Of a stretch of DNA of 4,536 nt, positions 1-4,536 are shown piece by piece (positions within the stretch are counted from its first letter, which is position 1; each line of letters begins with the position of its first letter). The stretch lies in IMG/VR virus record IMGVR_UViG_2778261451_000003; one strand, given 5' to 3'. The translations under genes were made by a program, and so were the position numbers. Origin of the DNA: a virus (lineage: Duplodnaviria > Heunggongvirae > Uroviricota > Caudoviricetes). The notes under the pieces were generated by a model that saw nothing but the letters and a program-made list of their open reading frames with translations, ran no database searches and had not been told where the DNA came from.

Positions 1-181
1 CAGCGAGTAGGTATATGGGATAATCGCGGATTCAGGTGCTGGTACTGAATTCACCGGGAGGCACCCGGCACCATGCACTTCAATAGATTCTCTCCACATT
101 ATGGATATTCTTTCAGAATATCCCACGCAGACTTTGTGTAAATGTTAACAAATGTGCGTTTTATTTGATCTGATTCGCTGT

Positions 182-211
182 TTGAGCGTCCAAAACAACG
201 GTATATATAAT
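182..211 (+). promoter_or_regulatory. Candidate sigma70 promoter for the first lipoprotein gene: -35 TTGAGC (182-187), 18-nt spacer, consensus -10 TATAAT (206-211)
   Basis: Motifs read directly; the -10 is a perfect TATAAT inside a TATATATAAT run, about 30 nt upstream of the ATG at 241, with a GAGGA ribosome-binding site at 233-237. Not experimentally supported. Confidence 0.4.
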
Positions 212-240
212 CCTTTACTATATGACATATGTGAGGAAAA

Positions 241-669
241 ATGGGTTTTCGTAGCGCATCAATTCTTACGTTGATTATTAGTGGGATTATTATCGGGTGC
301 ACTGATGCTGTATCGACAAATTATCATGACCGTACATCATATTACTCCGATAAAGCAATAGAGACACAGTATGTGAGTTCATCTGAACGTACTTCTGATG
401 TTAGTGAGGATATCCGTCTGTATGCCCATCAAATCAAGAGCGCCATCGAAAAACAGTTCGGGGATGCGAGTAAGTATTCAGGAAAAGAGTGTACACTGAG
501 AATGCATATGGCCCCGAATGGCCTTCTACTGGAGGTTAAAAGAGAAAGTGGAGACCTCGATTTATATCGTGAAGCGATGAATGCGATAAAGAATGCTGAT
601 ATACCTGCCCCCCCTTCGCCGGAAGTATATAAAGTATTTCAAAATGGGGTGCTGGATTTTAAACCCTGA
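241..669 (+). CDS. Outer-membrane lipoprotein with a TolA C-terminal domain III-like domain (142 aa)
   Basis: Six-frame ORF with GAGGA ribosome-binding site. N-terminus MGFRSASILTLIISGIIIGC has a positive n-region, hydrophobic core and lipobox IIGC; Cys at 298-300 is followed by Thr, not Asp, which under the +2 sorting rule predicts outer-membrane sorting. The C-terminus YAHQIKSAIEKQFGDASKYSGKECTLRMHMAPNGLLLEVK...IPAPPSPEVYKVFQNGVLDFKP aligns by eye with the recalled E. coli TolA C-terminus (YAGQIKSAIESKFYDASSYAGKTCTLRIKLAPDGMLLDIK...IPKPPSQAVYEVFKNAPLDFKP), including the terminal LDFKP. Confidence 0.8.
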   Translation: MGFRSASILTLIISGIIIGCTDAVSTNYHDRTSYYSDKAIETQYVSSSERTSDVSEDIRLYAHQIKSAIEKQFGDASKYSGKECTLRMHMAPNGLLLEVKRESGDLDLYREAMNAIKNADIPAPPSPEVYKVFQNGVLDFKP

Positions 670-819
670 TATTTATTGTTTTGTAATAAACGGTTTCGGC
701 TTAGGTTTGTTCTGACACAACTACGGCACTGAGCTAAATTTAGCGGATAGTCAGCTCTGAGCCAGTGGCGGACGTAACAACTACTATTGCTGAGATTTTA
801 ATGGATTGAGGAGCAAGAA

Positions 820-1215
820 GTGGGATTAAAGAAAATCGTTATGTTGACTTTTTGGGTCGGTTTTGTTGCGGGATGCACACCTTTACACCCTTCAGATTGC
901 CACAAAACTACTGCTACAGGTAGTTGCAGTTCAGGACGCTGGGATGATCAGGATGAATGGGGGGCGCAAGCGCGGGGAATCAGAGCTGCAATTAATGCCA
1001 AACTTGATGAGCCGCATAACTGGAAAGGGAAAAAATGCAGGTTGCATATGGAATTCTCTCAGGATGGCACGGCGTTAAAAATATCTACCAGTAACGGTGA
1101 TAAAGCCTATTGCGAAGCGATAAAGTCCGCAGCTCATAAAGCCAAATTTCCGGCCTTCAACAATCCGGAAGTCTACAGAGATTTTCAGAAATCTGGCTTT
1201 GACATGCGAGGTTAG
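820..1215 (+). CDS. Second, divergent TolA domain III-like outer-membrane lipoprotein, paralog of 241-669 (131 aa, GTG start)
   Basis: GAGGAG ribosome-binding site at 807-812, 7 nt before GTG 820. N-terminus MGLKKIVMLTFWVGFVAGC has lipobox VAGC (Cys at 874-876, +2 Thr). C-terminus KKCRLHMEFSQDGTALKISTSNGDKAYCEAIKSAAHKAKFPAFNNPEVYRDFQ parallels the KECTLRMHMAPNG...PEVYKVFQ block of ORF 241-669 and the TolA domain III CTLRIKL...ALCQAAL...VYEVF pattern. Confidence 0.75.
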   Translation: MGLKKIVMLTFWVGFVAGCTPLHPSDCHKTTATGSCSSGRWDDQDEWGAQARGIRAAINAKLDEPHNWKGKKCRLHMEFSQDGTALKISTSNGDKAYCEAIKSAAHKAKFPAFNNPEVYRDFQKSGFDMRG

Positions 1216-1340
1216 CTCTTCAATTACTATATCTCATTCATAGCAAACTGACAGATTTGATGATGTTCTATATACGAAACCTGTGATGTCAAGTCTGAGC
1301 TAATACAAATAAACATAATATCAGAGAAATACATTTTATT

Positions 1341-1364
1341 AGCTCGCTACGGCGAGCTTTTTAT
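1341..1364 (+). terminator. Intrinsic terminator closing the lipoprotein cassette: stem AGCTCGC (1341-1347), loop TACG, stem GCGAGCT (1352-1358), then T-run
   Basis: Perfect 7-bp GC-rich stem with 4-nt loop followed by TTTTT; sits 126 nt after the second lipoprotein stop and about 100 nt before the holin start. Confidence 0.6.
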
Positions 1365-1466
1365 ATTGCATCGTCTCCAGCATATATATCAATTAAGGCT
1401 CTGATTGATGTGTCTGAAAGCCTACACATAATAACTATGCCATCCGTTCCGTGCGGAGGTGAGGCT

Positions 1467-1682
1467 ATGAAATCCATGGACAAAATTTCAACAGGCATTG
1501 CCTACGGCACCTCCGCAGGCAGTGCTGGCTACTGGTTTTTACAGTTGCTCGATAGAGTAACTCCGTCACAGTGGGCTGCAATCGGTGTGCTGGGTAGTCT
1601 GGTATTTGGCCTGCTGACGTACCTGACAAACCTTTATTTCAAGATTAAAGAAGGCAAGCGTAAGGCTGCACGGGGAGAGTAA
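1467..1682 (+). CDS. Phage-21-type pinholin (class II holin, S21-like), 71 aa, dual-start motif
   Basis: Translation [71 protein letters not shown] has two transmembrane segments and a charged C-terminus, matching the recalled S21/EssD family. Met1-Lys2-Ser3-Met4 is the classic antiholin/holin dual start. Strong ribosome-binding site GGAGGTGAGG at 1455-1464. The upstream extension of the six-frame ORF from 1410 has no ribosome-binding site and is not used. Confidence 0.9.
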
Positions 1683-1686
1683 TTCA

Positions 1687-2037
1687 ATGACTCAAAAATA
1701 TGAACTGATTGTGAAAGGGATCCGCAATTTTGAGAATAAAGTTACGGTAACTTTAGCGTTACGGGACAAAAAACGCTTTGACGGTGAAATTTTTGACCTG
1801 GACATCTCGCTGGACCGTGTTGAAGGTGCCGCGCTGGAGGTTTATGAGGCAGCAGCCAGAAGGAGCATCAGACAGGTCTTCCTGGATGTTGCTGCCGGGT
1901 TATGTGAAGGGGATGAGCAGTCGCCGGAAAAGCGCCCCGTAATTTTAGATGCGCAGAATGTGTGGATAACCTACAAAGGGAAGCTACCAGGAAGAATTAC
2001 TGGTTCTCTGAAGACTCCTCCAGCATCACAACCTTAA
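1687..2037 (+). CDS. DUF1327 / YdfR-like protein of unknown function, inserted between holin and endolysin (116 aa)
   Basis: ATG at 1687 lies 4 nt after the holin stop TAA (1680-1682), with ribosome-binding site GGGGAGAG at 1672-1679. No transmembrane segment. The N-terminal two-thirds (MTQKYELIVKGIRNFENKVTVTLALRDKKRFDGEIFDLD...EAAARRSIRQVF) resemble, from memory, the YdfR family that occupies the same holin-endolysin slot in the E. coli Qin prophage. The C-terminal ~40 aa could not be assessed. Confidence 0.65.
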   Translation: MTQKYELIVKGIRNFENKVTVTLALRDKKRFDGEIFDLDISLDRVEGAALEVYEAAARRSIRQVFLDVAAGLCEGDEQSPEKRPVILDAQNVWITYKGKLPGRITGSLKTPPASQP

Positions 2038-2100
2038 GTCACTGACCGGAACAGATAAACCTGTCCGTGGGCAGAAACCGATAAATCCTGATAAATATCC

Positions 2101-2634
2101 ATGAACGCAAAAATCAGATACGGCCTGTCGGCTGCCGTTCTGGCACTGATTGCCGTCGGTGCGCCCGCGCCTGATATTCTCGACCAGTTTCTGGATGAAA
2201 AAGAAGGTAACCACACAACGGCATACCGCGATGGGTCCGGCATCTGGACCATCTGTCGGGGTGCCACGATGGTGGATGGAAAACCCGTTTTTCCCGGTAT
2301 GAAACTGTCGAAGGAAAAATGCGACCAGGTCAACGCCATTGAGCGTGATAAGGCGCTGGCATGGGTGGAGCGCAATATTAAAGTACCACTGACCGAGCCA
2401 CAAAAAGCGGGTATCGCGTCATTTTGTCCCTATAACATTGGCCCCGGTAAGTGTTTTCCGTCGACGTTTTATAAGCGGCTGAATGCTGGTGATCGTAAAG
2501 GTGCATGCGAGGCGATTCGCTGGTGGATAAAAGATGGTGGGCGCGATTGCCGCATACGTTCAAATAACTGCTATGGACAGGTTATTCGTCGTGACCAGGA
2601 AAGCGCATTAGCCTGTTGGGGGATAGATCAGTGA
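2101..2634 (+). CDS. SAR endolysin (signal-anchor-release, T4-lysozyme-like muramidase, glycoside hydrolase family 24), 177 aa
   Basis: The N-terminal segment [17 protein letters not shown] is Gly/Ala-rich and weakly hydrophobic, as in SAR domains. The catalytic E-x8-D-x5-T spacing in [19 protein letters not shown] matches T4 lysozyme E11/D20/T26. Overall similarity to recalled phage 21 R and DLP12 RrrD-type lysozymes. Start has a weak ribosome-binding site. Confidence 0.9.
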
Positions 2635-3098
2635 GCAGAGTCGCCGCGATTATTTATGCTCTGGTTATCTGCATCATCGTCTGCCTGTCGTGGGCGGTCA
2701 ATCATTACCGTGATAACTCCATCGCCTACAAAGAACAGCGTGATAAAAAAGTCAGTGAGCTGAAGCAGGCGACCGCCACCATTACTGACATGCAGCAACG
2801 CCAGCGTGCTGCTGATGTACTCGATGCTAAATACACGAAGGAGTTGGCTGATGCGAAAGCTGAAAATGATGCTCTTCGGCGCAAGCTTGATAATGGTGGT
2901 CGGGTGCTCGTCAAAGGAAAATGCTCTGTGCCATCCTCAGCCGAAACCTCCAGCGCCTCCGGCATGGGCAATGATGCCACCGTCGAACTCTCTCCAGTTG
3001 CTGGACGAAACGTTCTCGGTATCCGGGACGGAATCATCAGAGACCAGACAGCACTGAGAACGCTTCAGGAATATATCAGGACGCAATGCCTTCGATGA
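2631..3098 (+). CDS. Rz: Rz i-spanin (inner-membrane spanin subunit), lambda-like, 155 aa, GTG start overlapping the endolysin stop
   Basis: From GTG 2631 (GTGA overlap with endolysin stop 2632-2634) the protein begins [39 protein letters not shown]..., close to recalled lambda Rz [39 protein letters not shown].... It has an N-terminal transmembrane segment and a coiled-coil periplasmic domain. The six-frame track's TTG 2616 start is an upstream extension. Confidence 0.9.
2851..3057 (+). CDS. Rz1: Rz1 o-spanin (outer-membrane lipoprotein spanin subunit) embedded in the +1 frame of Rz, 68 aa
   Basis: ATG 2851 preceded by AAGGAG (2838-2843). Translation [44 protein letters not shown]... has lipobox VVGC and a Pro-rich mature region, matching recalled lambda Rz1 (MLKLKMMLCVMMLPLVVVGCTSK...KPPPPPAWIMQPPP). 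Lies entirely inside Rz, the classic embedded architecture. Confidence 0.8.
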
Positions 3099-3272
3099 TA
3101 GCGATAATTTTACTCATCATCCTTCACATTTGGCTCTGTAGACAGGGTGGTGATCACTTCTGGAGTGAATCCAGATTAAACATCTCATTGCTGATGCTTG
3201 AAGTTGAGCATCTGGCGCGCGGTAAGGGGCTGCGTTGAAATAAGAGCCAGTCATTAAAAATACCTGGGTTTA

Positions 3273-3298
3273 GCCTCGCATTCGCGGGGCTTTTTATT
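3273..3298 (+). terminator. Intrinsic terminator for the plus-strand lysis operon: stem GCCTCGC / GCGGGGC (one G-U wobble), loop ATTC, then TTTTTATT
   Basis: 7-bp GC-rich stem at 3273-3279 / 3284-3290 followed by a T-run at 3291-3298; about 175 nt after the Rz stop. Confidence 0.55.
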
Positions 3299-3303
3299 GC
3301 CAT

Positions 3304-3333
3304 TACAAAAGCCACTCCCTACAGAGTGGCTTT
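3304..3333 (-). terminator. Hairpin GCCACTC / GAGTGGC (3311-3317 / 3324-3330, extendable by AAA/TTT), followed on the minus strand by TTTTGTAA; candidate terminator for the convergent minus-strand unit
   Basis: Perfect 7-10 bp stem with 6-nt loop. On the minus strand the 3' arm is followed by a 4-U run; on the plus strand by TTT, so it may act in both directions. Sits 45 nt after the stop of the 54-aa minus-strand ORF. Confidence 0.4.
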
Positions 3334-3379
3334 GATAATGGCTTATACCCTACACGGGATAACTTAACTGATATCCCTT

Positions 3380-3544
3380 TTAACGGATAAAGGTATTCAA
3401 GCCTGACACATCATGCGCTGTATCGTCGCCGTATTCCCGTATTAACAGAGACCGTAGCCTGACGGGGAACTCCTTCTGCGCGAGTGTGCGGGAATAATCA
3501 AAAACGATGCACACCGGGGTTACCGGGTACACATATTTCATCAT
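3380..3544 (-). CDS. Possible small ORF (54 aa, MMKYVYPVTPVCIVFDYSRTLAQKEFPVRLRSLLIREYGDDTAHDVSGLNTFIR), hypothetical
   Basis: Hand-translated from the minus strand; below the size cutoff of the supplied ORF track. No convincing ribosome-binding site. GC-richer than the adjacent gene. Sits between the YbcV-like gene and the minus-strand terminator hairpin. Could be a gene remnant. Confidence 0.2.
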   Translation of the reverse strand: MMKYVYPVTPVCIVFDYSRTLAQKEFPVRLRSLLIREYGDDTAHDVSGLNTFIR

Positions 3545-3589
3545 GCCAGCGAGTCCGGTTCTGGCGCGGAAGAAACCGGACGTTATGAT

Positions 3590-4000
3590 TTAGTGCGGAA
3601 ATATTTGTGTAGTGTTCTGAATGTTCTCAGTAAATAGTAATGAATTATCAAAGGTATAGTAATATCTTTTTTGTTCGTGGATATTTGTAACCCACCGAAA
3701 AACTCCTGCTTTAGCAAGGTTTCTTCTGTATTCCTGAAATGTGATCTCTCTGGATTTCAGCTTATTAGAGGTCGTTTCTATAAGATGCCTATCCTTTGAA
3801 AATTTGACAGACACAATGTTTTTTAGGCCCTTTAATAACACTGTATTATCATTTTTTAATACAATATGAACATTCTCTGTGGCTAAATAGTAAATGTAAT
3901 GTGAGACATTGTGACGTTTTAGCTCAGAATAAAACCAGTGATAGTTTAAATCGTTTCGAACTTTATCAAATATTTGTTTAAAAATGACTACCTGATCCAT
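3590..4000 (-). CDS. DUF1398 / YbcV-YdfO-like prophage protein (136 aa from the second ATG)
   Basis: Six-frame ORF 3590-4015. The second in-frame ATG (3998-4000) is preceded by GAAGG at appropriate spacing, whereas the first ATG (4013-4015) has no ribosome-binding site, so 136 aa is preferred. Markedly AT-rich coding sequence. Resembles from memory the YbcV/YdfO family of lambdoid prophage accessory genes in E. coli K-12 (DLP12, Qin); the family assignment was not verified. Confidence 0.65.
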
Positions 4001-4057
4001 AGATAAACCTTCCATGTGATATGAGGGGGCGTAGTCTGCACGATTATCTAAATTGCT

Positions 4058-4291
4058 TCAATCTGGTCTGACCTGCTTTCTGAGCAATTCAGTAATGTCA
4101 CTCTTTTCTTTGTTTGCTTCAGGCGAAACTCTTTTTTCTGAGCACAGTCTCCGGCGGCAGGCTTCAATGACCCAGGCTGAGAAATTCCCGGACCCTTTTT
4201 GATCAAGAGCGATGTTAATTTGTTCAATCATTTGGTTAGGAAAGCGGATGTTGCGGGTTGTTGTTCTGCGGGTTCTGTTCTTCGTTGACAT
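4058..4291 (-). CDS. Small ribbon-helix-helix (Arc/MetJ-like) DNA-binding protein, possibly YlcI/YnfO-like (77 aa)
   Basis: N-terminal basic tail (KNRTRRTTTRN) followed by IRFPNQMIEQINIALDQKGSGNFSAWVIEACRRRL, i.e. beta-strand then two helices as in Arc and CopG-type repressors. First gene of the minus-strand unit, immediately inside cos. Weak ribosome-binding site. Confidence 0.55.
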   Translation of the reverse strand: MSTKNRTRRTTTRNIRFPNQMIEQINIALDQKGSGNFSAWVIEACRRRLCSEKRVSPEANKEKSDITELLRKQVRPD

Positions 4292-4439
4292 GAGGTTGCC
4301 CTGTATTCAGTGTCGCTGATTTGTATTGTCTGAAGTTGTTTTTACGTTAAGTTGATGCAGATCAATTAATACGATACCTGCGTCATAATTGATTATTTGA
4401 CGTGGTTTGATGGCCTCCACGCACGTTGCGATATGTAGA

Positions 4440-4536
4440 TGATAATCATTATCACTTTACGGGTCCTTTCCGGCGATCCGACAGGTTACGGGGCGGCGAC
4501 CTCGCGGGTTTTCGCTATTTATGAAAATTTTCCGGT
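4440..4536 (+). other. cos: Lambda-type cos site: cosN with 12-nt cohesive end GGGCGGCGACCT at 4491-4502, cosQ-side sequence upstream, start of cosB-side sequence downstream (truncated by window end)
   Basis: 4441-4490 (GATAATCATTATCACTTTACGGGTCCTTTCCGGCGATCCGACAGGTTACG) matches the recalled right end of phage lambda with about one mismatch. 4491-4536 (GGGCGGCGACCTCGCGGGTTTTCGCTATTTATGAAAATTTTCCGGT) matches the recalled first 46 nt of the lambda left end. Confidence 0.85.

Follow-up and report, generated by a model that had tools for sequence, protein, structure and literature searches.

The 4,536-bp stretch of DNA analysed here (the window) closes with a true cos site of the lambda type, of which the left 43% (positions 4434-4536, comprising cosQ, cosN and most of I2) is present, uncut, at the end of the late region of a lambdoid prophage. 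We place the probability of this reading at roughly 0.9. Direct comparison with lambda establishes what cosQ, cosN and I2 are, where they lie and which way they run, and cleavage at cosN is a function predicted for the site. This is the textbook element, already known, with no new biology implied. An earlier note on this DNA had gone further, taking the preservation of the cosQ-cosN region as a sign of recent or current packaging competence rather than of a long-decayed remnant. That inference fails, and the cos carries no information on competence.

The 3′ end of the window reads ACGGGTCCTTTCCGGCGATCCGACAGGTTACG, followed directly by GGGCGGCGACCT and then by CGCGGGTTTTCGCTATTTATGAAAATTTTCCGGT. 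The middle element, the 12-nt cohesive end, occurs in a single copy, at 4491-4502 on the + strand, with only about 0.01 matches expected by chance. In an ungapped comparison, window 4145-4490 corresponds to lambda (NC_001416) 48157-48502 and window 4491-4536 to lambda 1-46, with agreement at 345 of 351 bases up to the cut site and at all 46 bases after it. Over the last 306 nt (4231 to the end) the window differs from lambda only at 4302, 4429 and 4474, and over the last 97 nt (4440-4536; lambda 48452-48502 plus 1-46) there is one mismatch, which bears out the near-exact lambda match recorded in the earlier note. Its description of about 50 matching nucleotides on either side of the cohesive end holds for the left side (51 nt), but on the right only 34 nt remain before the window ends. 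In the 'phages' collection, HK629, HK630, DE3 and lambda itself match a terminal segment of 237 nt at 98.7%, the matching stretch of the DE3 record is annotated 'cos site', and the linear lambda records stop exactly at window position 4490. A search of the cos region against Rfam gave no match.

The features found are those of a lambda-type cos, namely the cohesive end, its flanking CG pairs, the 7-bp cosQ at lambda spacing and I2 bases 18-46, all on the + strand. The cosQ element (GGGTCCT; 4461-4467) is intact, identical to that of lambda and located 23 nt before the cut. It lies inside a block, CGGGTCCTTTCCGG, that is invariant in lambda, phi80 and N15, and the phi80 record labels the 55 bp preceding the cohesive end 'cosQ; aka R4 region'. 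We take the exact lambda coordinates of cosQ to be 48473-48479 (presumably those of Wieczorek & Feiss 2001). The cosN core (4489-4504) is also intact, with GGGCGGCGACCT bordered by CG at 4489-4490 and at 4503-4504. The AT-rich I2, between cosN and cosB, occupies 4508-4536 and is identical to lambda bases 18-46, its last four bases falling past the contig end. The sole difference from lambda within 4440-4536, at position 4474 between cosQ and cosN, is a C where lambda has T (lambda 48486). The same C is found in phi80, N15, the K-12 prophage DLP12, STEC346 and AST215, which makes it a common natural allele, one that functional phages (phi80 and N15) carry; the T of lambda is the minority allele. 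The match does sit at a contig end, the least reliable part of assemblies, and chance resemblance or an assembly artefact might be suggested on that ground. Such an explanation can be dismissed in view of the extent of the agreement with lambda on both sides of the cut, the low expectation for the 12-mer and the presence of the identical 97-mer in the finished genome of E. coli F3.

The cos site of lambda is known as a region of about 200 bp made up of the 7-bp, highly conserved cosQ, then cosN, I2 and the 120-bp cosB (Feiss and colleagues; PMC4669245, PMC4856287, PMC9026076). Of these, cosB spans about bp 48-170 and holds R3 (about bp 48-65), the IHF site I1, R2 and R1 (PMC4669245, PMC4856287, PMC9026076), while I2 is the AT-rich cosN-cosB interval at bp 18-50 (PMC4856287). 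Initiation of packaging requires cosN and cosB, and termination requires cosQ and cosN (PMC4669245, PMC4856287, PMC9026076). The need for cosB at initiation is documented together with a termination at cosQ-cosN that is not cosB-specific (PMC4669245). The 5′-CG-3′ pairs flanking the nicks are conserved, and bases 1-6 of the cohesive end (its left half) are the most constrained (PMC4669245). In lambda-like phages, the small terminase subunit Nu1 binds the R sites of cosB, aided by an IHF-induced bend at I1, and thereby brings the large subunit A into position to cut the two strands of cosN 12 bp apart; the nicks predicted here follow 4490 (top strand) and 4502 (bottom strand). Packaging then starts from the Nu1 side, with the cosQ side entering last, and at the next cos the combination of cosQ and cosN triggers the terminating cut.

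The window stops before cosB and therefore holds the termination half of the site and none of the initiation and specificity half. The complete cos clone used in experiments, which carries cosQ, cosN and cosB, is the 238-bp lambda segment 48446-182 (PMC4856287). Window 4434-4536 on the + strand corresponds to lambda 48446-48502 plus 1-46, or 103 of those 238 bp, and includes none of the cosB needed for initiation; the 'intact packaging signal' of the earlier note is unsupported on this point. The contig stops at lambda bp 46, about 2 bp short of R3 and thus of cosB, and R3-I1-R2-R1, Nu1 and A all lie outside the window.

Reverse-complemented, the draft contig NOCQ01000072.1 (GCA_002549575.1), 4,536 bp long, is identical to the window over its full length. 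Both ends of the window are therefore contig ends, and these are assembly breaks inside multi-copy lambdoid prophage DNA. Since the contig runs 46 nt beyond the cut site, its end is not a virion end, and the sequenced DNA carried cos in covalently joined form, whether as prophage, circle or concatemer. Among E. coli complete genomes, the 97-mer occurs at 8,716 places in 4,587 of 5,426 genomes (about 85%), with up to eight places per genome, and the break at bp 46 presumably arose from this repeat nature of the region. A perfect lambda cosQ-cosN in so large a share of genomes, often in several copies, calls for caution in annotation. An exact search with the 76 nt from cosQ to bp 46 (the 76-mer) returned 120 loci in IMG/VR and three in GTDB. 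A divergence of cos copies exactly at the I2/R3 border was considered as the cause of the stop and was rejected, bp 47-52 being identical in all 43 downstream variants seen among 122 loci; the first polymorphisms downstream of the 76-mer fall at bp 53-54.

Upstream of cos, open reading frames and Pfam assignments made on the source contig define a lysis region on the + strand, with a class II holin of 71 aa (1467-1682), a YdfR/DUF1327 protein (1687-2037), a lysozyme (2101-2634) and an Rz-like spanin (2631-3098). Ahead of these, also on the + strand, are two tandem TolA-like open reading frames (241-669 and 820-1215) with a TolA C-terminal domain (PF06519) and lipobox-like N-termini (…IIGC and …VAGC). 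On the − strand, a DUF1398 gene lies between the lysis genes and cos, and its neighbor, at 4058-4291, is the last gene before cos and encodes a 77-aa protein of the YlcI/YnfO family (DUF3950; Pfam PF13132). The succession of holin, lysozyme and Rz, then cosQ and cosN, is that of lambda S-R-Rz-cos, and the order of the lysis cassette (1467-3098) fixes the orientation of the region relative to cos. Provided that the element is packaged, window 1-4490 would accordingly form the right end of the virion chromosome, the 4.49 kb that enter last. The earlier description of the window as the last ~4.5 kb of the virion genome is thus sound as regards its lambda orientation and, with that proviso, its terminal place, but the sequence itself is not a virion end. 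On the map of a lambda-type genome, cos puts the TolA-like pair, the lysis genes, DUF1398 and YnfO among the 4.5 kb packaged last. As had been proposed, both the TolA-like pair and the genes on the minus strand do lie inside phage DNA, and the same TolA pair is present in the sequenced phage mEp460_ev081.

Two features of the lysis genes may be added. The lysozyme has a hydrophobic N-terminus that suggests an enzyme of the signal-anchor-release type. Embedded in the +1 frame of the Rz-like gene is an open reading frame (2806-3057, + strand) with a proline-rich product bearing a lipobox (…MVVGCSS…), and this product is expected, from its sequence, to be an Rz1-like outer-membrane spanin.

The window shares with lambda the cosQ element, the cosQ-cosN spacing, the cohesive end, the CG pairs, I2 bases 18-46 and the orientation to the lysis genes, but differs from it upstream of lambda 48157, where it has a DUF1398 gene, a full-length ynfO, lysis genes of other types and the TolA-like pair in place of lambda bor and lambdap78/79. 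Homology to lambda sets in sharply near 4145 (lambda 48157), within the YlcI/YnfO gene, and marks a mosaic junction; lambda shares only the 5′ 147 nt of this gene, which is full-length in the prophages Qin and DLP12 and in the window. The TolA pair is located between the antiterminator gene Q and the holin gene in mEp460_ev081 and in prophages of E. coli AST215 and STEC346, the first copy in STEC346 being a pseudogene. Although mEp460_ev081 is the best match to window 1-2634, the expectation that it ends in the same cos had to be rejected: the cosQ-containing motif GGGTCCTTTCCGG is absent from its terminal 9.6 kb, and the record ends in unrelated sequence. Since this phage lacks the lambda cos at its end, the TolA and lysis module must be joined to other packaging modules too. 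STEC346 and AST215 share with the window the TolA-like pair, the lysis genes, DUF1398, YnfO and cos, matching 79-87% of the window at 94-96% identity, and both, like MLI023K1 and F3, have prophages with complete head modules in which cos is followed downstream by Nu1-A-W-portal-protease-D. The whole window is covered in no E. coli complete genome or phage record, the best matches covering 87% at 94.3% identity and 54% at 96.3%, and an exact 94-nt query spanning both window-specific SNPs found no match in the viral or genome contig collections. The window is a new mosaic of known modules, and its closest relatives mostly look intact.

What follows the same cos in other genomes bears directly on the matter of competence. 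A lambda-type cosB continues after the identical 76-mer in all 122 loci with enough downstream sequence, and for that reason very probably does so in this genome. Seventy loci, those with at least 2.65 kb downstream, could be evaluated for terminase, in a sample that leans toward phage-like regions through the bias of IMG/VR: Nu1 and A are both uninterrupted and full-length in 49, and one or the other is split, truncated or missing in 21 (30%). The ten non-redundant genomic contexts of a YnfO protein identical to that of the window divide evenly, five running from Nu1 through head and tail genes and five being decayed. Among the latter, L012 is devoid of any Nu1, L016 carries a deletion from Nu1 to E, and in L013, L019 and L021 what comes after Nu1 is IS1, host genes or genes for tail-fibre assembly. 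L012, L019 and L021 nevertheless have the same sequence as the window from cosQ to bp 46, and L013 and L016 differ from it by one base each, outside cosQ and cosN.

Across E. coli complete genomes, the 8,716 cos places compare with 5,371 places bearing any lambda-type A, fragments such as aaaD included, and a near-full cos match in 4,454 genomes compares with a near-full A match in 3,260; A genes less than about 85% identical to lambda escape both of the A counts. Conservation of the cos segment does not exceed that of its flank, with 1 mismatch to lambda in 97 nt compared with 5 in the 295 nt of adjacent ynfO and intergenic sequence. There is no signal of purifying selection specific to cos, and a stretch of about 100 nt is too short for decay to become visible at within-species divergence. 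Seven other contigs encode the exact DUF1398 protein of the window; Nu1 adjoins cos in all seven, and full-length A is present in six, the seventh (L030) ending inside A. One of the six, L026 (GCA_040340445.1, locus 1-1765), has intact Nu1, A, W, portal, protease and D genes, with an integrase in place of the capsid gene E, and an intact terminase beside cos is therefore no guarantee of a complete head module. Combining these samples of other genomes (5 of 10 contexts, 49 of 70 loci and at most 62% of the places in complete genomes), the odds somewhat favor an intact, full terminase after cos in this genome.

Two accounts of the element that carried this cos have to be weighed on this evidence. 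That it was a phage with an intact packaging signal, competent for packaging recently or still today, is, with reserve, the probable one: complete Nu1, A, portal, protease and head genes are frequent in relatives that share the 97-nt or 76-nt sequence, 49 of the 70 evaluable loci are intact, and the lysis open reading frames of the window are all uninterrupted. Against this stand the five decayed YnfO contexts with their identical or nearly identical cos, the 21 loci with a disrupted Nu1 or A, the surplus of cos places over A places, the unexceptional mismatch rate of cos, a cosB that lies outside the window, and the missing E of L026 in spite of its terminase. The cryptic prophages of K-12 provide the clearest counterexamples. 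Qin reads ynfO-cos-nohA and passes directly into a truncated tail gene, and DLP12, annotated 'cryptic prophage DLP12', reads ylcI-cos-nohD, then the aaaD pseudogene and tfaD; both keep cos yet have no full A gene, no portal gene and no capsid genes. Qin is identical to lambda over cosN and the 130 nt preceding it and matches window 4040-4536 at 98.6% identity over 497 nt, and DLP12 shares every base of the window from cosQ through bp 46, the C at 4474 included. Because it survives in prophages long devoid of terminase and head genes, cosQ-cosN alone is unusable as a marker of an inducible phage.

The window and these two prophages share a DUF1398 gene, a YlcI/YnfO gene and cos in the same layout; Qin and DLP12 have as their own feature a cos followed by a Nu1 homologue and then by truncated A or tail-fibre genes, all of which would fall past the contig end. 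The upstream layout is equally compatible with an orphan cos in a defective prophage like Qin or DLP12, a site that would be retained because it has had too little time to decay and recombines readily with infecting lambdoid phages, and that could still be cut by the terminase of a helper. DLP12 and lambda have in common a 3,353-bp stretch with R, Rz, cos, nu1 and A that is 98% identical (De Paepe et al. 2014, PMC3945230), junctions of recombination between them cluster next to cos, and R, Rz and nu1 of DLP12 function when moved into lambda (PMC3945230); recombination could in this way keep the cos region of defective prophages phage-like. The window itself has a flank (4391-4460) of the lambda/Qin type but at 4474 the C of DLP12, phi80 and N15, and this combination of a lambda-type flank with a C-type 76-mer was seen in none of the 123 C-type loci. 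It would fit a junction left by recombination beside cos, of the kind described for lambda-DLP12 hybrids (PMC3945230). With the two K-12 precedents, the five decayed contexts and the 30% of loci with a disrupted terminase also in its favor, an orphan cos is a real but tentative possibility, held back by the six of seven DUF1398-sharing contigs with full-length Nu1 and A (L030 ending inside A) and by the complete head modules of the prophages that are the best overall relatives. It is unlikely that the cos here belongs to a prophage remnant without terminase of its own and continues to be cut by the enzyme of a lambda-like phage that infects or shares its host. If that were true, the site would serve as a helper-driven packaging end and a recombination hotspot, mobilizing the TolA-like cassette and neighboring DNA into other phages.

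A lambda-type cos need not belong to a phage genome at all. Phage-inducible chromosomal islands (PICIs), such as EcCICFT073 and its relatives, have like the window a lambda-like cosQ and cosN at the same spacing, and their cos is near-identical to that of the helper phage in these elements and differs from it only from about bp 45 onward (PMC9026076, PMC6739421), close to where the window stops. PICIs differ, however, in having their own cosB, an rpp gene in place of Nu1 and no lambdoid lysis cassette upstream, whereas the context of the window is phage-like. In place of an island context of integrase, alpA and replication genes, the sequence upstream is a lambdoid late region (holin, lysozyme, Rz, DUF1398 and YnfO), as in lambda-type prophages, and the identical 76-mer continues into lambda-type cosB at every one of the 122 loci. 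A PICI origin is accordingly highly improbable, and the reading of the window end as the left part of a lambda-type cos in a lambdoid prophage is retained.

Some further observations concern the sequence outside cos. A promoter scan of 3000-4536 found none. Between the lysis genes and the minus-strand DUF1398 gene, just after a 50-aa open reading frame (3086-3238), a GC-rich hairpin with a T-run behind it, resembling a terminator, occupies 3272-3291 (+ strand). At the opposite end, upstream of the TolA-like genes, window 1-130 (+ strand) matches the Rfam family STnc100, a gammaproteobacterial sRNA, with 51.2 bits against a gathering score of 47; the match covers model positions 79-206 of 206, its 5′ end being cut by the contig end.
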